DNA of 64,000 nt from an uncultured Candidatus Saccharibacteria bacterium (GTDB lineage: Bacteria; Patescibacteriota; Saccharimonadia; Saccharimonadales; 2-12-FULL-41-12), in contig CAYOLI010000003.1 of the NCBI GenBank assembly GCA_964404795.1, positions 31,621-95,620 on the forward strand, written 5' to 3'. Shown piece after piece: positions 8,666 through 47,576 of the stretch. Within the stretch, counting starts at the first letter, position 1; each line of letters starts with the position of its first letter. The translations under genes were made by a program, and so were the position numbers. The notes beneath the pieces were generated by a model. It worked only from the letters and a program-made list of their open reading frames with translations, made no database searches and was not told the DNA's origin.

Positions 8666-9034
8666 TTAGTTATTCAGTTTAGATTTTACTAGCTCGGCAA
8701 CCTGCCTAGGAGTCATATCCGCCTTTAGTATAAAAGCGCTGACGCCAAGATTTTCCATTGATTTTGGAATTTCTTGCTCCCCCATGTTTGTTAAAACGAT
8801 TACTTTTATATCTTTTCCCCACGGTGTCTCGCGTAGTTTCTGTAGCATTTCGTCCCCAGACATTTCGGGCATCATCAAGTCCAACAGAATAATATCGGGT
8901 TGCATTTGCTCTACAAGCTCTAGGCCAAACTTACCGTTTTCCGCGGTTTCGACATCGAACCCTTCGGTTTCAAATTTGATGCGATACATTTGTGCAATCG
9001 CGTGGTCGTCTTCAATTATGGCTATTTTAGGCAT
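8666..9034 (-). CDS. Stand-alone response-regulator receiver (CheY-like) protein
   Basis: 122 aa with IIEDD, the phospho-acceptor context DIILLDLMMP, and VIVLTN...K. No output domain. Confidence 0.85.
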   Translation of the reverse strand: MPKIAIIEDDHAIAQMYRIKFETEGFDVETAENGKFGLELVEQMQPDIILLDLMMPEMSGDEMLQKLRETPWGKDIKVIVLTNMGEQEIPKSMENLGVSAFILKADMTPRQVAELVKSKLNN

Positions 9035-9166
9035 ATTGTGTATCCAATTATAAACTAAATTCGTATACCCTAATAGTGTGTAAATTTAAAAACAGAGTGT
9101 TTCTGTTATTGAATATATTATAAAAATATGCTCTAATAGTATTAATATTCAGTAATATACGTTGTA

Positions 9167-9943
9167 ATGGAAATAGAACGATCCATAGAATCTAGTAATG
9201 ACTTGATTACTCCCAACCCAACTGGCGAGGAAGCTTTAATCGAACGATCATCTGACAGTATTCGCAGAAAAATCATAGGCGGGGCAATTGTCGGTTTGGC
9301 TACCGCAGCGCTATTTGTTGAACAAAGCCCACTAAACGAATCTGTTAGGATTCCGCCCGCAGCCGCAGTATTCCGAAGTACGGGTAGCGAACTAAAAACA
9401 GGAGGAGTCGTGGGCGCCCTTACTCTTGGAATTGAAATTCCTACAAGTATACTAGTATCCGCAGGTCTAAACTACGAAAGAGACAGGATAAGAAAAGTGG
9501 TCAATAGGTTTAAGGGAGCTGATACTGGCTATAGTAAAAAAGATGAGACTCCAAAAGATTATGGCTTAAGAGATATTGTGACGGATACCAGTATAGCTTT
9601 CGGTTTGGGTCCATCAGTTCTCGTTGCCAAACGACATATTCAAAATCCAGAAAGAACATTTAAATCTAATGTAAAAACGGGAGTAAAAGCGTCTGTTGCT
9701 GTTTCTGCTCTTGCTGCTAGTATAGGAGGTATTTCTGCAGTATTGTTGAAGCAAGCAGATAACCTGGGTGCGTTTAAGAAACCTGCAGAGTATTTTGTAG
9801 ACTACGCTACTGACTGGAAATTTTGGATTGGTGTTGTGGGGAGCATACAGGTATTGTCGTATGCTAGGAATAAGCTACGAGGTAAACGGCGTAGAATGTC
9901 GTCAAAAGATGAAATTTTGGCAGAAAGGGACAATCGTGAGTAG
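9167..9943 (+). CDS. Hypothetical polytopic membrane protein (first gene of a three-gene overlapping operon)
   Basis: 258-aa ORF with about five hydrophobic segments (e.g. IIGGAIVGLATAALFV, GVKASVAVSALAASIGGISAVLL) and a basic tail. No family recognised. Confidence 0.55.
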   Translation: MEIERSIESSNDLITPNPTGEEALIERSSDSIRRKIIGGAIVGLATAALFVEQSPLNESVRIPPAAAVFRSTGSELKTGGVVGALTLGIEIPTSILVSAGLNYERDRIRKVVNRFKGADTGYSKKDETPKDYGLRDIVTDTSIAFGLGPSVLVAKRHIQNPERTFKSNVKTGVKASVAVSALAASIGGISAVLLKQADNLGAFKKPAEYFVDYATDWKFWIGVVGSIQVLSYARNKLRGKRRRMSSKDEILAERDNRE

Positions 9944-10739
9944 ATACAATCAGGACAAAGTAGAAGCAATGTTACCTCCAGTAAGTGACGAGCATTTTGG
10001 GTTCAATAATGAAGCACGGTTTTGGGTTGGGCGAGTTGCTACCAAGTCAGTAGTAGATGCCCCAGGTATACACGATAGTTTATTGCAGTTTCGCGGGAAT
10101 GTTTATGTCCGGGAATGCGGTTTTTTGCCAGAGAATAGCTTAGATAGTAAGGGACGTGAGAGTGATTCGGATGATCTTCGGTCATTACTTTTTTCTGCTG
10201 TTGAAAAATACACTGACGATGGTGAAACTGGAGCAAGGGTTGTGGGCTCTTCTAGGATTATTATGAAAGACTCTGATCAAATCTTGCCTATCGAGAACTA
10301 TTTTCCTGAAGTATTTAAAAAATTCCCGGCCGAGGGTAATATTTCTTCTGAAATTTCGAGATATATTGCCAGACATCCAAACAAGTTTGTTCAAGGATTA
10401 GTATCTTTGGCGTTAGTGCGAGCCATGTTTAATGTATGCATTCAAGAAGGCATAGAAAATGCATACGCAATGCTAGAAGAGAAACCGTTAAACAAACTTA
10501 GGCGGACGGGCATAGAAGCTAATGATATTGGCTCTTCAAAATATATTGCAGAACTAAAAGGTGTAATCCAACCTGTTGTTTTTCGTCCCTTTGAACTAGT
10601 TAATACTCTGTATGCCGAGTCGGCTGACGTAGACCAGCCCCTGACAGCTTCACAAATTTTCTTCCAGTTCGATCAAAACAAAGACGGGCATGGGTTTTAT
10701 AATGAAGATTTGATGAGAAAAGATCATGATATCTCGTAA
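9936..10739 (+). CDS. LuxI/FeeM-fold GNAT N-acyl (amino acid/homoserine-lactone-type) synthase-like protein
   Basis: FRGNVYVRECGFLPENSLDSKGRESDSDDLRS, EISRYIARHP and LEEKPLNKLRRTGIEANDIG follow the autoinducer-synthase/N-acyl amino acid synthase pattern. The ORF opens at 9828, but the GTG at 9936 follows an AAAGGGA RBS and overlaps the upstream stop. Confidence 0.6.
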   Translation: MSRYNQDKVEAMLPPVSDEHFGFNNEARFWVGRVATKSVVDAPGIHDSLLQFRGNVYVRECGFLPENSLDSKGRESDSDDLRSLLFSAVEKYTDDGETGARVVGSSRIIMKDSDQILPIENYFPEVFKKFPAEGNISSEISRYIARHPNKFVQGLVSLALVRAMFNVCIQEGIENAYAMLEEKPLNKLRRTGIEANDIGSSKYIAELKGVIQPVVFRPFELVNTLYAESADVDQPLTASQIFFQFDQNKDGHGFYNEDLMRKDHDIS

Positions 10740-11610
10740 ATTTGAACGTAATCTAGGTTTTATGACTGTTGAGGAACAGGAAAAAATAAATTCCTCTAGC
10801 ATCGCTATTGCTGGTGTAGGAGGGGATGGCGGTCTTCTTGCAATTCAGATGGCAAGATTGGGTATACAAAGATTTAACTTGGCCGATCCTGATGATTTTG
10901 AAGAGGAGAACACAAACAGACAAGCGGTTTGTACACAGACAAGTATCGGCAAGAATAAAGCTGAGGTAGTAGGAGAGTACTTGCAGGATATCAACTCAGA
11001 AATAGAGATCTCAGTATTTGATACAGGTATAAATCAAGACAATGTTGGACCTTTTGTCGAGGGTTGTGATCTAGTTATAGATGAAACGGAATTTACTATG
11101 CATAAATTAGGCATTATGCTTGCAAGAGAATCTAGGGCTAGAGAAATTCCTCAGATGACAGCGCTTAATATTGGCTTTGGTGCAATAGTTACTACTTACC
11201 ACCCAACGAGCAGGTTTACACTTGAGAAGCAACTTGGGTTTAATAAAGAAGACGATATTTCTGAAGTTGAAAAAAGCCAAGTTAAACTGGATAGATGGCT
11301 ACCGTATGTCCCGTCTTACGGTGACTTATCCGTTTTAGGCAAAGTATCGACAGGCAAAGTGTCTGCTCCGTCCATTGCCCCTGGCGTCGCACTAGCAGCA
11401 GGTGTTGGGGCAACGCAAGCTACATTAAACCTCTTAAGTGAGTCTAATAACAATAGGCCAAAGCCCATCTACGCTCCGAGAGCAATCGTTGTGGATGCTG
11501 TGGAGCAAGTTTTTAAACAAGTCAGAATGTCTCGACTCAGTCACTATAGGCATTTAAGTAAATTGGTTTTAAAAAATACTTTAGGTATGAATCCAAAAGC
11601 AGATTATTAG
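10726..11610 (+). CDS. ThiF/MoeB/HesA-family (E1-like) adenylyltransferase
   Basis: Nucleotide-binding loop IAIAGVGGDGG, then ADPDDFEEENTNRQ (the NxxRQ motif) and DLVIDETE. No Cys-rich or rhodanese extension. Overlaps the upstream gene by 14 nt. Confidence 0.75.
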   Translation: MISRKFERNLGFMTVEEQEKINSSSIAIAGVGGDGGLLAIQMARLGIQRFNLADPDDFEEENTNRQAVCTQTSIGKNKAEVVGEYLQDINSEIEISVFDTGINQDNVGPFVEGCDLVIDETEFTMHKLGIMLARESRAREIPQMTALNIGFGAIVTTYHPTSRFTLEKQLGFNKEDDISEVEKSQVKLDRWLPYVPSYGDLSVLGKVSTGKVSAPSIAPGVALAAGVGATQATLNLLSESNNNRPKPIYAPRAIVVDAVEQVFKQVRMSRLSHYRHLSKLVLKNTLGMNPKADY

Positions 11611-11649: not shown

Positions 11650-13830
11650 ATGCTTGATGGATATGTAGCAACCAGTTTTATTCTTGCTATATTATTTTTT
11701 ACGATCGGAGCGATCGTTTTTGTCAGGAACCCGAACAAAAAAACTAATAGAACATATCTAATCTTCAGTATTTTCGTTGGAATATGGCTGGTCGCGAATT
11801 TTATTGCTAGTTCGACCAAAGTTGATACGCAGGTTGCGCTAATAGCAAATCGTATAGTTTTTGTATTTGGCGGGCTTGCGGTCACCACGATGTTTGTCTT
11901 CTTTCTTTACTTAACTAAAGCCAAGCTAACTTTGAGTATGAAGATATTAGTATTTTTCTCGCTCTTTACAAGCTTGATAGGATTGTCTCCGTTAATAGTT
12001 AAGGATGTTTTTTTAAAGGGGGATACATATGGTATTAATTTTGGCCCACTGTCTAGCTTGTATTTTCTTTTATTAACCATTGTTTTTGCAGCCACCATTA
12101 TAAATCTCGTTGTCGGAGTTACTAGTAAAGAGTCAGAGAGAAAAGAGCCATTTAAAATAATATTGATTGGCATTACTATTACTTTCATCGGTATATTTAT
12201 TACTAACGTTGCACTTCCGGTCGGCTTCAATTATTTTGGGTTAGCTAATATAGGGTCGTATTTTGCCATCTTTGTTGTGGCCAGTATGGCATATGCAATC
12301 ATTAAGCACAGATTATTCGATATAAAATTTACCATAGCTAGGATTATGACATATGGTCTCTTGGTGTCGACGTTAAGTGCCATCTATGCGGTTACTGTAT
12401 TTGTTTTTGCCAGCAAACTTTTGGACGCAGAATCTTTGTTCGCTCAGCAGGTAATACCAATTACTACGGCAATATTCCTAGTATTTACCGCTCCGCTATT
12501 AAGAAAACTATTCGATAAAATTACAAACAGGATTTTTTATCAGGATGCTTATGACCCCCAAGTATTTCTAGATGAATTTAATAAAGCGCTTCTTAATAAT
12601 ATCGAATTACCAATTTTATTAAGACATTCTACCACTGTGATTCAAGAAAATTTAAAAAGTCAGTTTTGTGTGGTCGTTGTCAACGAGGACGGTCCCGAGC
12701 AAACCAGGATAATCGGTACTGAACGGTTGCGTTTGTCTGATTCGGAGAAAACATTTCTACGACAGGATTTAGCTAACTCTAGAGAACGCGTAATTGCTGT
12801 CGACGAAAGTCAAGATCTACATCCAAGACTCAGCCGTATACTGAAGTCAAAAAATATTGCAGTGGCTGTTCGATTGGATGCAAGCTATCGTACTGGAGAA
12901 GACTCGCTCGCGTATCTGATGATGGGACCAAAAAGTAGTGGTAGTTTTTATAATAAAAATGATCTGAAAATTATCGAGATAATCTCGGATGAGTTAGTAA
13001 TTGCCATTCAGAACGCCCTACGATTTGAGGAGATCCAGGGCTTTGCTGCTACCTTGCAAGAGAGAGTCAATGACGCCACGGCTAGCATTAAGCGTACAAA
13101 CGAAAAATTAAAAGAAATCGACGAAACAAAAGATGAGTTTATTAGCATGGCCTCTCATCAACTCAGAACGCCGCTTACGTCAGTCAAGGGGTACCTTAGC
13201 ATGGTTTTAGAAGGGGATGTGGGTGAGATTAGCGAAAAACAGCAAAAACTGCTTGGACAGGCGTTTGTGAGCTCACAGCGTATGGTTTATCTGATTGCCG
13301 ATTTGTTAAATGTTTCTCGCCTTAAAACCGGCAAGTTTGTTATTACGCCTGCGCCGTCCGATCTCGCCGAGATGGTACAGGGCGAAATAGACCAGTTATT
13401 AGAGGTGGCAAAGAGTAAGCGGATCAAAATTAATTACAAAAAGCCAAAAGAGTTTCCACTGCTTATGATAGACGAGACAAAAACCCGTCAGGTTATCATG
13501 AACTTCATAGACAATGCCATATACTACACACCATCATCTGGCGAGGTAGACGTATCTGTTAAAGAAGATAAAAACCATGTTTATTTTACTGTCAAAGATA
13601 ACGGTATTGGCGTACCAAAAGAGGATCAAAAACATTTATTTACTAAGTTTTACAGGGGTTCTAATGCTAGAAAAACTCGACCCGATGGAACGGGGTTAGG
13701 GCTTTTTATGGCAAAAAGAGTCATTATTGCACAAGAAGGCACGGTCTTATTTGAGAGTCGAGAGGGCAAAGGTAGTACCTTTGGCTTTTCTCTAAACAAG
13801 TCAAAACTAGCGGTTAATCAGGAAAATTAA
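11650..13830 (+). CDS. Sensor histidine kinase with a multi-TM N-terminal domain
   Basis: About 7-8 N-terminal hydrophobic helices. H-box SMASHQLRTPLTSVKGY, N-box FIDNAIYYTP, G1 VKDNGIGVP, G2 GTGLGLFMAKR. Confidence 0.9.
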   Translation: MLDGYVATSFILAILFFTIGAIVFVRNPNKKTNRTYLIFSIFVGIWLVANFIASSTKVDTQVALIANRIVFVFGGLAVTTMFVFFLYLTKAKLTLSMKILVFFSLFTSLIGLSPLIVKDVFLKGDTYGINFGPLSSLYFLLLTIVFAATIINLVVGVTSKESERKEPFKIILIGITITFIGIFITNVALPVGFNYFGLANIGSYFAIFVVASMAYAIIKHRLFDIKFTIARIMTYGLLVSTLSAIYAVTVFVFASKLLDAESLFAQQVIPITTAIFLVFTAPLLRKLFDKITNRIFYQDAYDPQVFLDEFNKALLNNIELPILLRHSTTVIQENLKSQFCVVVVNEDGPEQTRIIGTERLRLSDSEKTFLRQDLANSRERVIAVDESQDLHPRLSRILKSKNIAVAVRLDASYRTGEDSLAYLMMGPKSSGSFYNKNDLKIIEIISDELVIAIQNALRFEEIQGFAATLQERVNDATASIKRTNEKLKEIDETKDEFISMASHQLRTPLTSVKGYLSMVLEGDVGEISEKQQKLLGQAFVSSQRMVYLIADLLNVSRLKTGKFVITPAPSDLAEMVQGEIDQLLEVAKSKRIKINYKKPKEFPLLMIDETKTRQVIMNFIDNAIYYTPSSGEVDVSVKEDKNHVYFTVKDNGIGVPKEDQKHLFTKFYRGSNARKTRPDGTGLGLFMAKRVIIAQEGTVLFESREGKGSTFGFSLNKSKLAVNQEN

Positions 13831-13836
13831 CTCTTT

Positions 13837-16440
13837 TTAACGCAGTTTTACTGCATCGTCCTCTTTTAACATGTAGCTGTCTTGTTCAACGGTTTTCGAT
13901 GTTAAATTGGTTTTTTCTACAACTGATCCACCGAGTAGCTTGTTTTTGTCCGATTTCGTTTTACGTTTTCTGGTGCGTTTTCTTTTTCTTGGGGTAGTGG
14001 TTGGTGCCATTTCGGGCTTTAGCTCTAGCTTTCTCTCTATAAACTCGGGGTTGGTTGCTGGTTTGTCGGCTACAACAGCAGTATTAGTTGGTTTTTTTGC
14101 TTTTTGCTTGGTCGCAGTTGGCTTTATTTTTGACGTATCCAGATTATGCCTAGCGTTGATATATTCCTCCACCTCTGTTACAGATAGTGCATATTTTTTT
14201 CGACTCTGATCTATGATGGTTTCCGAATAATCTTGCCCATATTCTTCAAGATCGGTTGTAATGGCTGAGAAGGCCTGTGCCTTTTCTCCGTTAATGGTCA
14301 TACTAATTACAAAACTGCGGTTGTGCATGTGTACTAGATCGTGCTCGCTAAATTTGGGTTCGAAGTATTTAAGCATGATCCTGGCATCATCAGCACTGGT
14401 TCTAAAGGATATAATCGACCCTACGTTGCCAAAAACAGCATCTTTTACACTTTGCATCATCTGGGCGGTGTATTGGTTGGCCACCGTAAGGTTAAGGCCA
14501 TATTTCCTCGCTTCGGACAAAATGGTTGCAAAAGAATCGGTTGCAAAATTTTGGAACTCGTCTACATATAGGTAAAAAGGTATACGTTCATTAGGTGGTA
14601 TGTCTGCACGGCTCATGGCAGCCATCTGTATTTTGGTTACCATCAGTGCTCCTAGAAGTCCAGCATTATCTTCGCCTATAAGACCACGAGAGAGGTTAAC
14701 AATTAGTATTTTTTGGTAGTCCATAATCTCACGAATGTTAAAACTGCCTCTCGGTTGGCCAATGATGTTTCTAACCAGTGGGTTGGCGGTAAAAGCCCCA
14801 ATTTTGTTCAGAACTGGGGCAACCGCTTCGGCCGCAAATTTGTCGTTGTAGCTGGCAAATTCGACAGTCCAGAAGTTTTGTACAACTGGGTCGTTAACGT
14901 ACGTTAGCACCTCTTCTCTAAACTTTTTATCGGTTAAGATGCGGGTGATATCCAGCATTGTGGCCTCTGGGTAATCGAGCAGTGCCAGTATGCTGTAGCG
15001 CAAAATGTACTCTAGTCGTGGCCCCCAGGAGTCAAACATTCTTTTTAATACCCCAATCAGTTCAGAGCAGGCATGAGTTCGCAATTTGGGGTCAGTTACT
15101 TCTAAAGGGTTAAACCCTATCGGATAATCGCTGTCTGCCGGATTAAAATAGATAACGTCGTTTACTCTGTTGGCTGGAATACGTTTAAGTACATTTAGTG
15201 CATAATCTCCGTGAGGATCGATTACGGCAAAGCCCTGTCCGTCTACAATGTCCGAAAGGGTTAACAGCTCTAATAAACCCGACTTACCAGCGCCAGTTTG
15301 GCCAATAATGTACAGATGACGACCTCTGTCAGATCTTGGTAGACCAAATAAGGTGTTATAGCCCCTAAAGTTGGTGTGCGCCATCATGCTAACTTCTGAG
15401 GATTTTGTAACTGGCAGATTAGCTGGTGGCTCGGCAGTTGTAGCGTTTGCCCAGAGGATATTTGGGGTTTCTACGTTAGTATGGGGCAGATGGTATAAAC
15501 TGGCTAGCTCTTCTATATTAAGAGTCATACTTTTTGCCCCTAATAATCTGTTTTGATAAGATTTAACACTGCTTAATCCCGTTTGCACCTTGCTAGAGCT
15601 AAAACCGTTTAAATAGGTCGAATTGAACTGTTTAAACCCTGCTACTATGGACTGCAAGCGCATTTGTGCCTGCGAATCGGTAGAATTACCAAGATAGATA
15701 ATCCTAACCGCTGCTGAGTACGCCAGTTTGTGGCTCTTCTCCTCCGATGCGGAGGCCCGTGCAGATTCATGTTCGACCAACTTAGGTGTTTGTGACTGCT
15801 TTTGCTCGGGCGGAGCGCTTAGAGCACCCAGTAGCCCTACGTATTGGCTGGAGTTAATTCCTCCACTACCGCGAATGGACTGCGAATAGCGCTCACTCTT
15901 CTTGTACCAGCCGTTTTTGGCTGGTTGGACTACCACCTGTATCCAGGCACTTTCATCTGGGGCAAACTGAGCTAAACTGGCGGTGATTCCAGCCAGCGGA
16001 TCTACCTCAAAACTAGGAAATGTCTTGATTGGTAAGGGGTCTGGCGCAATTAGCTTTAACTCGGTCGAGATGGTGTGTTTGCCACTATTTGGTAGCCGAG
16101 AGTAGTCGTCTACCTCTGATATCTCTACATTTGGGTATTGGGCATATATTTGGTCTTGAACGTATTGTTTTAGTCGTGTAGGGCACCAGACAAAGAAGTT
16201 AATTTGACCACTTATAGTAGCAATTTCGAAACTAATCCTATCGTGCACGGCAGAGGTAAAGAGTCCACTAGATTGCTTGGTAAGCAGTCCATGTATAGCC
16301 GCAAGCATCTGTTCGGCTGCCAACTCCTTTTTCTCGTTATTACGGGGTACTTTCAACAGTAAAACAGAGGTATCTTCCGTTATCTGGCCTTGCTTTTTCT
16401 TAAATAACATTGTATGCATTATATCACTATGCTTATGCAA
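13837..16440 (-). CDS. VirD4/TraG/TraD-like (type IV coupling protein-like) P-loop ATPase with a large N-terminal domain and a basic tail
   Basis: Walker A IIGQTGAGKSG, FAVIDPHGDY, Walker B-like FYLYVDEFQNFAT and LNLTVANQY. C-terminal tail is rich in K/R (PRKRKRTRKRKTK). A TATAAT sits 7 nt before the third ATG (16410), so a leaderless start there is possible. Confidence 0.65.
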   Translation of the reverse strand: MHKHSDIMHTMLFKKKQGQITEDTSVLLLKVPRNNEKKELAAEQMLAAIHGLLTKQSSGLFTSAVHDRISFEIATISGQINFFVWCPTRLKQYVQDQIYAQYPNVEISEVDDYSRLPNSGKHTISTELKLIAPDPLPIKTFPSFEVDPLAGITASLAQFAPDESAWIQVVVQPAKNGWYKKSERYSQSIRGSGGINSSQYVGLLGALSAPPEQKQSQTPKLVEHESARASASEEKSHKLAYSAAVRIIYLGNSTDSQAQMRLQSIVAGFKQFNSTYLNGFSSSKVQTGLSSVKSYQNRLLGAKSMTLNIEELASLYHLPHTNVETPNILWANATTAEPPANLPVTKSSEVSMMAHTNFRGYNTLFGLPRSDRGRHLYIIGQTGAGKSGLLELLTLSDIVDGQGFAVIDPHGDYALNVLKRIPANRVNDVIYFNPADSDYPIGFNPLEVTDPKLRTHACSELIGVLKRMFDSWGPRLEYILRYSILALLDYPEATMLDITRILTDKKFREEVLTYVNDPVVQNFWTVEFASYNDKFAAEAVAPVLNKIGAFTANPLVRNIIGQPRGSFNIREIMDYQKILIVNLSRGLIGEDNAGLLGALMVTKIQMAAMSRADIPPNERIPFYLYVDEFQNFATDSFATILSEARKYGLNLTVANQYTAQMMQSVKDAVFGNVGSIISFRTSADDARIMLKYFEPKFSEHDLVHMHNRSFVISMTINGEKAQAFSAITTDLEEYGQDYSETIIDQSRKKYALSVTEVEEYINARHNLDTSKIKPTATKQKAKKPTNTAVVADKPATNPEFIERKLELKPEMAPTTTPRKRKRTRKRKTKSDKNKLLGGSVVEKTNLTSKTVEQDSYMLKEDDAVKLR

Positions 16441-45644: not shown

Positions 45645-46616
45645 ATGATGATTGTCAAAAGAGTAGCAATTTATTTGCTAGTTAGTTTATTTTCATTAAC
45701 AATTGCATCGGTGGCTGTGGCACAAGAGAAAGTGCCCGGTAGTGGTCTAAGGATTTCACCAACTCGTACAGAGTTGACACTAGATAGAGGGAAGTCAGCG
45801 TCAATTAAGATCACACTAAAAAACGTATCAGGTGGTGACGTTATTGCCAAGGCAGACGTAAATGATTTTGAAGCAGAGGGAGAAACAGGGGATCCGAAAT
45901 TACTAGTTAACCAGGGCGATAAAAGAACTCCAACCAGCGTAGCACCATTTTTGTCCGATGTTAAAGACGTCTCCTTGAAGACAGATGAATCTAAAGAAAT
46001 AAGCATCCCCGTTAACATTCCATCAAACACTGCTTCTGGGGCCTATTACGGCGTAGTTCGTTATTCTGCAATTCCTGCCACGGGCCAGAATGAGCCAGGC
46101 AAGGTTTCGTTAACGGCCAGTGTTGCTACACTAGTACTTATCGAAGTACCAGGCAATATCACTCAGCAAATTCAGCTCAGTGATATTATTGTTTACCAAA
46201 GGAACAAAGAGGCAACATTTTTTTCAAAACCACCGACAGATATAGGAATTAGGATAAAAAACACCGGCAATAGTTTCTCTAAGCCATTTGGTCGCGTAGT
46301 TATCACTAACAGTTTTACAAATAAAGAAGTTTATTCATACGAGATGAATAATACTACACCCAGGAACAATGTACTCCCAGGAACAACGCGTGTATTTAAA
46401 GATGCATTAAAAAACGTTAGTAAGCCAGGTCGATACACAATTACTGCTGGAATATCCCATGGTAGCGGTGGAGAGGTAATTACTAAAAGAGTATCGTTTT
46501 GGTATATTCCTGGATGGTTGATGTTCGTGTTGGTAGTTATCGTTATTGGACTACTGGTTTCTGTATTTTATCTGGTTAGGAAACTCAAGAAGAACAACAA
46601 AAGAATTAAACGATAG
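45645..46616 (+). CDS. Ig-like, chaperone-like cell-surface protein with a C-terminal TM anchor (DUF916/DUF3324- or PapD-like architecture)
   Basis: Signal peptide. LRISPTRTELTLDRGKSASIKITLKNVSGGDV. A second beta domain GIRIKNTGNSFSKPFGRVVI...LPGTTRVF...PGRYTITAGI. C-terminal TM helix WLMFVLVVIVIGLLVSVFYL plus a KKNNKRIKR tail. Confidence 0.5.
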   Translation: MMIVKRVAIYLLVSLFSLTIASVAVAQEKVPGSGLRISPTRTELTLDRGKSASIKITLKNVSGGDVIAKADVNDFEAEGETGDPKLLVNQGDKRTPTSVAPFLSDVKDVSLKTDESKEISIPVNIPSNTASGAYYGVVRYSAIPATGQNEPGKVSLTASVATLVLIEVPGNITQQIQLSDIIVYQRNKEATFFSKPPTDIGIRIKNTGNSFSKPFGRVVITNSFTNKEVYSYEMNNTTPRNNVLPGTTRVFKDALKNVSKPGRYTITAGISHGSGGEVITKRVSFWYIPGWLMFVLVVIVIGLLVSVFYLVRKLKKNNKRIKR

Positions 46617-46676
46617 ATAGGCCTCTTACGAAAAGGTGAGGTGGATATACTTTAAACAAAATAGCGAGGTTTTAGG

Positions 46677-47576
46677 TTGTACAGCCCAACACGCGTTACT
46701 TTAAAGAGAGTTAACTTGCTAATAGTTGTAGTGACTGTTTTTTATATTCTTATTTTTTCTTTTTTGCCAACTAATGCAGAAACAAGTAAATCGGGGTCGA
46801 TTGGTTTAGAGGGCACCATTCCGGGTGGTGTGCCAACGCAAGCTGCTAGTATTACCTTTCCAACCAATGGGGCAACAATCAATAACCTGCCAATAACGGT
46901 TATGGGTATTTGTCCAAAAGGTACAGTAGTTAAGTTATACAAAAATAATGTTTTTACTGGGTCTGCGCAATGTAGTAATGGTAGTTTTAGCATTCAGACC
47001 GATTTGTTTACTGGATCCAACGAGCTTGTTGCGAGAGTTTATAATGAGCTGGATCAAGCTGGTCCGGACTCCAATATAGTTACGGTAAATTATCCGCTAT
47101 CACAATTTGGAGTAGTAAACCGAGTATCGCTAACATCAACTTTTGCTAAGAGGGGCGCAAATCCTGGAGAACTACTCTCTTGGCCAATAACCTTAAGTGG
47201 CGGAATTGGCCCATATGCCATATCTGTTGACTGGGGCGATGGTACAAAGCAGGATTTGATTAGCCAACAGTTCCCTGGTGCATTAAATATTAGCCACAAG
47301 TACGAGAAGTCAGGGACTTACGTTGTTATTGTTCGGGCTTCGGATAAAAATGGTGAGATTGCTTTTTTGCAGCTAATTGGTGTGGCCAATGGTCCAGTTA
47401 CCCAAGATGATGGCAAGAAAGATGGTGCCGGTACAACTACAATTGTAAAAACTAGGATTTTGTGGCTTCCTGCATTAATCGCTCTTCCGTTAATACTTGT
47501 TGCTTTTTGGTTGGGTAGAAAACACGAACTTGACACAATTCATAAACGACTTGATAGAGGTGATAGCGACTTTTGA
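46677..47576 (+). CDS. Surface protein with Ig-like and PKD-like domains and a C-terminal TM anchor
   Basis: N-terminal signal/anchor. PKD-like ISVDWGDGTKQDL...HKYEKSGTYVVIVRASD. C-terminal TM helix ILWLPALIALPLILVAFWL. Confidence 0.6.
   Translation: MYSPTRVTLKRVNLLIVVVTVFYILIFSFLPTNAETSKSGSIGLEGTIPGGVPTQAASITFPTNGATINNLPITVMGICPKGTVVKLYKNNVFTGSAQCSNGSFSIQTDLFTGSNELVARVYNELDQAGPDSNIVTVNYPLSQFGVVNRVSLTSTFAKRGANPGELLSWPITLSGGIGPYAISVDWGDGTKQDLISQQFPGALNISHKYEKSGTYVVIVRASDKNGEIAFLQLIGVANGPVTQDDGKKDGAGTTTIVKTRILWLPALIALPLILVAFWLGRKHELDTIHKRLDRGDSDF

Follow-up and report, generated by a model that had tools for sequence, protein, structure and literature searches.

Which small molecule might be made by an acyltransferase and an E1-like adenylating enzyme whose genes overlap, and what would a sensor kinase encoded directly behind them have to do with it? 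This question is raised by a locus beginning at position 9167 of a 64,000-nucleotide stretch of contig CAYOLI010000003.1 (assembly GCA_964404795.1) from an uncultured Candidatus Saccharibacteria bacterium; the whole stretch, at its full length, is called the window here. Gene A (memA; 9167..9943, + strand) is followed on the same strand, almost without spacing, by gene B (9936..10739), which encodes a LuxI/FeeM-fold protein resembling N-acyl amino acid synthases (NAS), by gene C (10726..11610), which encodes a stand-alone adenylating enzyme of the ThiF family, and by the gene of a sensor histidine kinase (11650..13830). The original prediction had regarded the pairing of the two enzymes as uncharacterised. 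This turned out to be wrong, as an NAS gene next to that of a ThiF-like, ATP-dependent cyclase forms the core of the biochemically reconstituted oxazolone pathways OxzAB (10.1101/2020.06.11.147165), TyzACB (PMC10404671) and TrzAS (PMC12856293). We consider it rather probable that genes B and C, together with the kinase, represent a desaturase-less, kinase-coupled relative of the NAS-ThiF oxazolone pathway, i.e. a two-enzyme route to a small molecule combined with a two-component sensor.

The acyltransferase and the adenylating enzyme

Gene B was read from the GTG codon at 9936 to the TAA at 10737-10739 (+ strand, 267 aa). This start is supported over that of a longer open reading frame (ORF) beginning with TTG at 9828, because an independent gene call on an identical contig also yields 267 aa, because the exact 267-aa protein is on public record, and because 55 homologues can be aligned at their N-termini, where M1 is nearly invariant; a purine run, AGAAAGGG, lies 8-15 nt 5' of the GTG. 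The protein scores under the gathering thresholds of Pfam FeeM (E 3.4e-5; 24.1 bits versus 27) and Autoind_synth (E 0.016; 15.2 bits versus 24), and its best curated match, NCBIfam TIGR03694 (2.4e-11), reaches 43.6 bits and fails the cut-off of 111.95. TIGR03694 is the PEP-CTERM/exosortase-associated acyltransferase family; the gene lists of the window contain no exosortase-type family, no search having been aimed at exosortases.

A HMMER search of 1.84 billion representatives retrieved 243 relatives of B, and the profile built from 55 of them matches the structures of the N-acyl-homoserine lactone (AHL) synthases BjaI, LasI, EsaI and TofI in the PDB, with E values from 6e-8 (BjaI) to 4e-5. 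Among the 55 sequences, Pfam recognises Autoind_synth in 35 (at E<0.01, best 9.7e-11), Acetyltransf_5 in 26 and FeeM in 20, and the residues that are invariant or nearly so (R53, E75, D77, D80, R107, E139, S141 and R142) occupy the signature positions of LuxI and NAS proteins. Comparison by hhalign gave probabilities of 94.7% for a match between the B family and the OxzA-like NAS of a Pseudoalteromonas locus (L042, described below) and of 98.7% for a match with a GNAT protein encoded on a Rhodococcus plasmid. By homology, B is a genuine but divergent LuxI/FeeM-fold acyltransferase. The fold that the original prediction had assigned to the middle protein is thus upheld through the family profile and the Pfam matches of the family members, whereas the window protein itself hits the LuxI/FeeM models only weakly, under their gathering scores. 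The motifs on which that assignment had drawn are all present in the translation of B (FRGNVYVRECGFLPE...GRESDSDD, EISRYIA and LRRTGIE), as are GVGGDGG and NTNRQ in that of C.

Gene C starts with the ATG at 10726 (+ strand) and encodes 294 aa, of which residues 7-269 match Pfam ThiF (E 6e-31); Pfam finds no second domain. The best NCBIfam match is PRK08223 (172.6 bits, cut-off 266), followed by PRK14851 (117 bits) and PRK14852. The models of ThiF, MoeB and TcdA give 57-83 bits, those of ThiF, MoeB, MoeZ and UbaA 47-83 bits against cut-offs of 152-647, and the Rv1355c (TrzS) family model matches weakly (48.7 bits). With the ThiF domain of the OxzB-type ThiF-nitroreductase of L042, C shares 31% identity over 262 residues (E 2e-31), including the motifs GxGGxGG, NxNRQ and PS..G..LAAGV. 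The nucleotide-binding and adenylation residues (GxGGxGG, D-x-D...N-x-N-R-Q, K78 and D119) are invariant in 42 homologues of C, and close to the active site the Saccharibacteria clade carries the motif D-E-T-E, as opposed to D-S-L-D or D-A-V-D in OxzB-type enzymes. The solved structure nearest to the AlphaFold2 (AF2) model of C (mean predicted local distance difference test, pLDDT, 94.9) is AclA (9egb), followed by ThiF, PaaA, MccB and MoeB. The entry 9egb shows the Tenacibaculum discolor protein 'in complex with substrate'; a literature search found no description of its reaction.

The description of this protein as a bare E1-like adenylation domain stands. Its only cysteines are C69 and C114, with neither a CxxC nor a conserved crossover-loop Cys; domain searches found no rhodanese, E2 or JAB partner, and the one ORF of 40-130 aa ending in GG in the whole window is spurious, lying out of frame inside the alanyl-tRNA synthetase (AlaRS) gene. 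There is no N-terminal peptide-clamp domain, MccB and PaaA aligning with C over the Rossmann core only. The E1-E2 models of PADLOC, too, match only the Rossmann part of C, and we discarded a reading of the locus as a defence system, for which PADLOC offers these generic matches and none for A or B. Another candidate that was tried and found no support is the N-terminal part of PRK14852 (313 residues) as an NAS domain within a triple fusion; B gave no match to that model at E<=1. We predict C to be an ATP-dependent carboxylate activator and cyclase.

Conservation of the synthase, the ThiF protein and the kinase

A scan of 185,579 species genomes, seeded with the window ThiF family, found the module in a few dozen of them; it is not universal in the group. 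The named relatives are metagenome-assembled genomes (MAGs) of Candidatus Saccharibacteria or Saccharimonadales. For comparison we used 35 non-redundant patescibacterial loci, in which ORFs and profiles were called anew. The NAS gene is separate and abuts the ThiF gene in 26 loci, is fused to it in eight, and was undetected in one. Overlaps of 1-23 nt or gaps of less than 20 nt between NAS and ThiF genes, and gaps of 17-97 nt between ThiF and kinase genes, recur in 34 of the 35 loci, which argues that the arrangement is not due to chance, and since the identity of the ThiF proteins to that of the window falls from 69% to about 40% across the loci, the arrangement is evidently old and has been maintained. 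A homologous multi-pass kinase is encoded less than 100 nt downstream of ThiF in 34 loci as well. The conserved unit is therefore NAS-ThiF-kinase. As to the co-occurrence expected of all three overlapping genes, that of NAS and ThiF proved very strong, while gene A is not conserved.

The fusions, of about 550 aa, carry the NAS domain at the N-terminus and the ThiF domain at the C-terminus (confirmed by Pfam on three of them), and each is followed by a kinase gene; they are located at L025:6185-7840, L029:4068-5726, L032:738-2381, L033:1268-2911, L034:6206-7861, L035:2285-3946, L036:6218-7903 and L037:4012-5697. According to the "Rosetta stone" argument, such natural fusions indicate that NAS and ThiF act on one substrate, and they are good candidates for biochemical studies on a single protein.

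The kinase of the window (+ strand, 726 aa) begins 39 nt 3' of C. According to a hydrophobicity scan, its first 280 residues contain about 7-9 hydrophobic segments, and Pfam finds HisKA (4.7e-16), HATPase_c (2.9e-27) and, below the gathering score, HisKA_7TM (1.4e-5). Conservation among the relatives is about 30-40% in the sensor region and 55-74% in the kinase core. On the other side of the locus, at 8666..9034 on the minus strand and divergent from the operon, lies the gene of a response regulator of 122 aa that consists of a receiver (REC) domain (Pfam Response_reg, E 2.4e-22), in which Pfam finds no output domain. The two-component genes that had been noted on both flanks are thus confirmed. 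Minus-strand REC homologues occur upstream of the module in 28 of the 35 loci, in 14 of them in at least two copies, often with murD beyond them, and the cell-wall genes murD and murI stand beside the module in many genomes.

Some loci recovered by the scan depart from this pattern. At L022:2395-3744 and L044:581-1930 (one of them labelled Uhrbacteria) the ThiF protein is extended at its C-terminus by about 150 aa that match nothing in Pfam, and the upstream NAS is shortened to 152-208 aa. In a Pseudobdellovibrionaceae MAG (L040:6968-9012) a bona fide PRK08223 ThiF protein (411 bits) is followed, with stop and start overlapping, by an ORF of 379 aa without a match to the flavin desaturase (FDO) domain of the OxzB type, and no NAS was detected upstream; this locus may represent another variant of the pathway.

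The idea of a producer and its sensor is not new in these bacteria, because a LuxI-like gene paired with a kinase has already been proposed in the Candidate Phyla Radiation (CPR), including Saccharibacteria: Bernard et al. (2020; PMC7567580) listed CPR homologues of LuxI, 18 of them adjoining putative sensory kinases, as candidate complete quorum sensing systems. In their Table S4 a LuxI homologue of Saccharibacteria is gene 598 and the kinases begin at gene 600, which is the spacing seen in the window, and the one intervening gene is not mentioned; the terms 'ThiF' and 'adenylyltransferase' do not occur in the supplements of that study. Our own search of the literature on Saccharibacteria together with ThiF found nothing relevant, and no names for the proteins of the window module were found in public sources. 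What appears to be new is the recognition of the intervening or fused ThiF protein as an integral partner of NAS and kinase, which corrects the earlier assignment of the CPR genes to AHL synthesis, the reassignment of the chemistry from AHL to an OxzAB-like product, and the absence of a desaturase from the NAS-ThiF module.

A possible oxazolone route without a desaturase

The oxazolone pathways have been reported in 2021-2025 (OxzAB as a preprint in 2020) and reviewed in PMC12596934. OxzA makes N-acyl-Tyr or N-acyl-Phe from acyl-CoA, and OxzB, a ThiF-nitroreductase, activates the carboxylate by adenylation and then forms and desaturates the oxazolone ring (10.1101/2020.06.11.147165; PMC12596934); the pair was described in Pseudoalteromonas rubra and about 50 proteobacteria by de Rond et al. 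(10.1101/2020.06.11.147165). In M. tuberculosis, the cyclisation of N-acyl-Tyr with ATP is carried out by TyzB, which, like C, is a stand-alone ThiF protein (about 318 aa), and the nearest structural homologues of TyzA are FeeM and BjaI (PMC10404671), structures that the B family profile finds as well. The stieleriacine-type clusters of Planctomycetota are a further match in the literature for the pairing of NAS with ThiF.

Our ThiF-seeded scan itself retrieved an OxzAB-type locus, L042, from chromosome 2 of a Pseudoalteromonas sp. There a 255-aa NAS passes TIGR03694 (162.5 versus 112) and is followed by a 671-aa ThiF-nitroreductase that passes PRK08223 (367.8 versus 266) and matches PRK14851 end to end. 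TIGR03694 and PRK08223, the families passed by the L042 proteins, are the top-scoring families of B and C of the window, which, judged by their scores, are divergent relatives and not members of these equivalog families. In both systems the gene of a LuxI/FeeM-fold N-acyltransferase stands directly 5' of that of a ThiF-type cyclase. However, OxzB continues into a C-terminal nitroreductase/FDO domain, whereas the ThiF protein of the window ends after the adenylation domain, and linkage to a kinase, present in the window, has not been described for OxzAB loci. L042 does have a histidine kinase and a REC protein encoded about 3 kb upstream of NAS (L042:410-2944, L042:6170-8986), which may be fortuitous or may reflect a less tight form of this coupling.

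The most conspicuous difference concerns the desaturase. To our knowledge, every characterised oxazolone cluster has a flavin desaturase of the nitroreductase superfamily. In the Tyz and Trz clusters it is always included, as the separate TyzC or as part of the fused TrzS (PMC10404671, PMC12856293), while phmmer and tblastn searches with an OxzB-type FDO query found no flavin desaturase in the 64-kb window or in the 35 related loci. No FDO/nitroreductase domain is fused to C, where Pfam finds ThiF only, and the Pfam gene lists tiling the window contain no Nitroreductase family; the 379-aa ORF of L040, used as an alternative desaturase query, found nothing in Saccharibacteria. The window also differs from the Tyz and Trz clusters in its taxon and in the presence of a kinase in the operon. 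A pair without an annotated nitroreductase is known from outside Patescibacteria: the closest annotated ThiF relative there (38% identity, best family PRK08223) is encoded on Rhodococcus plasmids (NZ_AP026694.1, NZ_CP034155.1) next to a 'GNAT family N-acyltransferase' homologous to B, within a 10.7-kb stretch in which no nitroreductase is annotated. This pair is uncharacterised and lacks a kinase, REC or membrane gene; in R. qingshengii plasmid pN9T4-3 (NZ_AP026694.1; L004:2846-5729) an IS256 transposase separates its GNAT gene from its ThiF gene, and the match to ThiF begins at query residue 42. Saccharibacteria live on hosts of this kind, Actinomycetota of the Rhodococcus type.

We propose the following route, of which the first two steps are inferred from homology and the Rosetta-stone fusions and the third from synteny. 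B would use acyl-CoA or acyl-ACP (acyl carrier protein) to acylate an amino acid at its alpha-amine, and the resulting N-acyl amino acid would retain a free carboxylate. C, by homology to OxzB, TyzB and TrzS, would adenylate this carboxylate with ATP, and attack by the amide oxygen would yield a 5(4H)-oxazolone (azlactone). Since no flavin desaturase was found in the window or the related loci, the product is likely to be a saturated N-acyl azlactone or a derivative instead of the stable arylidene oxazolone that Pseudoalteromonas and Mycobacterium make. Such a desaturase-less pair is chemically plausible, because TrzS, when its oxidase is disabled or O2 is limited, releases the cyclised saturated intermediate (PMC12856293), so that a ThiF domain of the TrzS type can make a saturated oxazolone by itself. 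The end product would be this azlactone, or whatever the azlactone or the acyl-adenylate forms with a nucleophile. Saturated azlactones are reactive acyl donors, and for this reason the true end product may be a derivative. Oxazolones are also labile in acid (PMC12856293). The kinase, finally, may sense the lipid-like product, as a signal among the cells themselves or between epibiont and host, or may tune its production to a cue from the envelope.

A signalling role of the module is plausible. Its fullest version, a self-contained circuit of Saccharibacteria and some other Patescibacteria built around an oxazolone or some other activated N-acyl amino acid, in which a short-lived saturated azlactone or lactone, made by the NAS-ThiF pair or by one fused enzyme, is detected by the kinase and relayed to the REC-only regulators, is put forward here as a tentative and still doubtful extension. 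The physiological role of bacterial N-acyl oxazolones has been described as unresolved, signalling being one speculation (PMC12856293; 10.1101/2020.06.11.147165), and so compact a system of synthase, cyclase and kinase makes the hypothesis that the product is the ligand of the kinase directly testable; the interest of the locus would be higher if this proved to be so. If the sensing circuit is real, it would provide the first defined physiological role and the first receptor for this class of lipids, as well as a case of autoinducer-like sensing in epibionts of ultra-small size, perhaps adjusted to the actinobacterial hosts or acquired from them. Tyrazolones and tryptazolones are products of Actinomycetota, the hosts of Saccharibacteria. 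It is tempting to speculate that the module could bear on the chemistry between epibiont and host.

Several considerations weigh against the route proposed above. As an end product, saturated 5(4H)-oxazolones would be odd, because they are prone to hydrolysis and racemisation, and the acyl donor lacks a candidate, as the gene lists of the window contain no acyl-CoA ligase, ACP or fatty-acid synthesis genes. True AHL synthases and OxzA are about equally close to B, the scores of B and C are well below the cut-offs of the OxzA and OxzB families, and the substrate and product of the two enzymes are not readable from sequence. The search for a desaturase was confined to the 64 kb and to the regions flanking the related loci. 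The azlactone model gives no account of the Tyr, discussed below, with which nearly all the ThiF proteins end, and REC partners that carry no DNA-binding output leave the regulatory logic without a clear route.

The same enzymology may serve another purpose. It is a doubtful but tenable possibility that the product is a structural or defensive aminolipid of the envelope, or an antimicrobial, and that the kinase monitors the state of the envelope. The relatives of NAS include aminolipid synthases of the OlsB type (a fused homologue matches the ornithine N-acyltransferase family weakly, at 6e-6), NAS is fused to a small membrane protein in the relative P0133, which places the chemistry at the membrane, and murD and murI accompany the module as described above; moreover, tyrazolones with C12 chains may reside in membranes and the N-acyl tyrosines of Stieleria are antimicrobial (PMC12856293). 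On the other hand, a co-transcribed kinase gene that follows immediately, as seen in 34 of 35 loci, is a feature more typical of circuits of a producer and its sensor, and the neighbourhood of murD may reflect only the vertical inheritance of position.

It is possible, although unlikely, that an N-acyl amino acid is formed as proposed and that its acyl-adenylate is then captured not by the amide oxygen but by another nucleophile. Attack by an OH or NH2 of the side chain would lead to a lactone or lactam, so that N-acyl-homoserine would be turned into an AHL without S-adenosylmethionine (SAM), and an external amine or hydroxyl would give an amide or ester lipid conjugate. ThiF-like enzymes have in common the nucleotidylation of a carboxylate and combine it with varied nucleophiles, as in the succinimide of MccB or in PaaA and TcdA (PMC12596934). 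The solved structure nearest to C is AclA and not ThiF or MoeB, the Saccharibacteria clade has its own D-E-T-E motif near the active site, and no desaturase that would stabilise an oxazolone was found in the loci searched. Yet oxazolones are the products of all the nearest functionally characterised relatives that have an NAS next to them.

Canonical AHL quorum sensing, in which B would be a SAM-using LuxI synthase, the kinase would sense the AHL in the manner of LuxM/LuxN, and the ThiF protein would be a passenger, seems to us quite unlikely. The locus does share with systems of the LuxI and LuxM/LuxN type the acyltransferase fold, the LuxI signature residues and a multi-pass histidine kinase adjoining the synthase (in 34 of 35 loci), the profile and Pfam matches of the B family to AHL synthases are those given above, and this is the reading proposed for CPR in PMC7567580. 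However, the window differs from LuxI systems in its obligatory ThiF partner, which lies between NAS and kinase in 34 of 35 loci, overlaps B in the window and is fused to the NAS in eight loci; ThiF needs a free carboxylate, which is absent from AHL, and this obligatory partner weakens the AHL reading, if indirectly. In addition, B of the window stays below the gathering score of Autoind_synth and has an OxzA-type family, TIGR03694, as its best curated match, and the intervening gene played no part in the 2020 survey. Within 10 kb on either side of the module no LuxR was found, and the kinase shows no specific similarity to the sensor domains of LuxN, CqsS or AgrC, its matches being confined to the kinase core and the weak HisKA_7TM.

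The last alternative involves the C-terminus of C, which ends in ...NPKADY (11593-11610). Among the 120 closest ThiF homologues (P0004-P0123) the last residue is Tyr in 112 and Phe in two, the motif being N-P-x-[AT]-[SD]-Y-COOH, and the terminal Tyr is kept in 22 of the 26 loci with separate NAS and ThiF genes versus one of the eight fusions, a correlation that is confounded by phylogeny. In chemical terms, a peptidyl-Tyr-COOH amounts to an N-acyl tyrosine. The tail may be a pseudo-substrate, or it may serve in docking to NAS, a function no longer needed after fusion of the two. That the ThiF protein instead acts on the C-terminus of a protein or peptide in the manner of E1, MccB or PaaA, perhaps on its own ...SY-COOH tail, with the GNAT acylating that target, is very improbable: the conservation of the tail and the preference of most characterised ThiF-like enzymes for proteins, peptides or tRNA (PMC12596934) speak for it, whereas the window contains no ThiS/MoaD-like GG protein and the intergenic regions no precursor-peptide ORF, C is without a clamp, a CxxC zinc site and a conserved crossover-loop Cys, and the loss of the Tyr from seven of the eight fusions fits a docking tail better than a substrate.

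The upstream slot and the surroundings

The dedicated membrane protein that the original prediction had included in a three-gene unit did not hold up as part of the conserved module. Gene A (258 aa, stop TAG at 9941-9943) encodes a candidate membrane protein without a match in Pfam, NCBIfam or PADLOC, and its family is small and unnamed, with only 12 clusters in 5.8 billion proteins. It has three to four moderately hydrophobic helical segments and two sharply conserved polar motifs, EQSPxNE and PAEYFVDYATDWKFW; its AF2 model is all helix and of low confidence (pLDDT 64), and Foldseek found no match in the PDB with E<0.3. It is probably an integral membrane protein. Members of the memA family stand 5' of NAS in six distinct loci only (the window, L001/L007, L003, L008, L011 and L015). 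In nine loci the same slot is taken by memB, a second family of small Gly/Ala-rich helical proteins (e.g. L009:3483-4148, L012:5594-6205, L013:5708-6241, L017:5101-5652, L023:4629-5447, L024:5670-6224, L026:5639-6226 and L027:5631-6215), and in P0133 memB (residues 15-188) is fused to NAS (211-445). Homology between memA and memB was considered and rejected (hhalign probability 2%). The slot is empty in many other loci, including all the NAS-ThiF fusions. Gene A is thus a lineage-specific accessory membrane protein and not a defining part of the module, with a possible role in anchoring the pathway at the membrane or in handling its product.

The translational coupling claimed for the three ORFs is confirmed: A and B overlap by 8 nt (GTGAGTAG) at the GTG at 9936, and B and C by 14 nt, from the ATG at 10726 to the end of B at 10739. 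A, B, C and the kinase gene would form one transcription unit. The AT-rich divergent region of 132 nt at 9035..9166, delimited by reading the sequence, presumably holds the promoters of this unit and of the REC gene. Consensus scans of the locus for promoters and terminators gave matches at background level only, and none for a terminator between C and the kinase gene. Neither the 132-nt nor the 39-nt intergenic region contains a small ORF of the precursor type, and the sole ATG of the former reads M-L-stop.

The wider neighbourhood includes folD, murI, murD, genes of glycolysis and of the F-ATPase, and tRNA synthetases. Six consecutive co-directional genes at 41623-47576 (+ strand; 224, 260, 423, 351, 323 and 299 aa) have no Pfam match on record. 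Directly beyond the kinase gene and convergent with it, at 13837-16440 on the minus strand, is the gene of an 867-aa TrwB/VirD4-like coupling-protein ATPase (DUF8128, TrwB_AAD_bind), which occupies the corresponding place in L001/L007, the relative with 69% identity.

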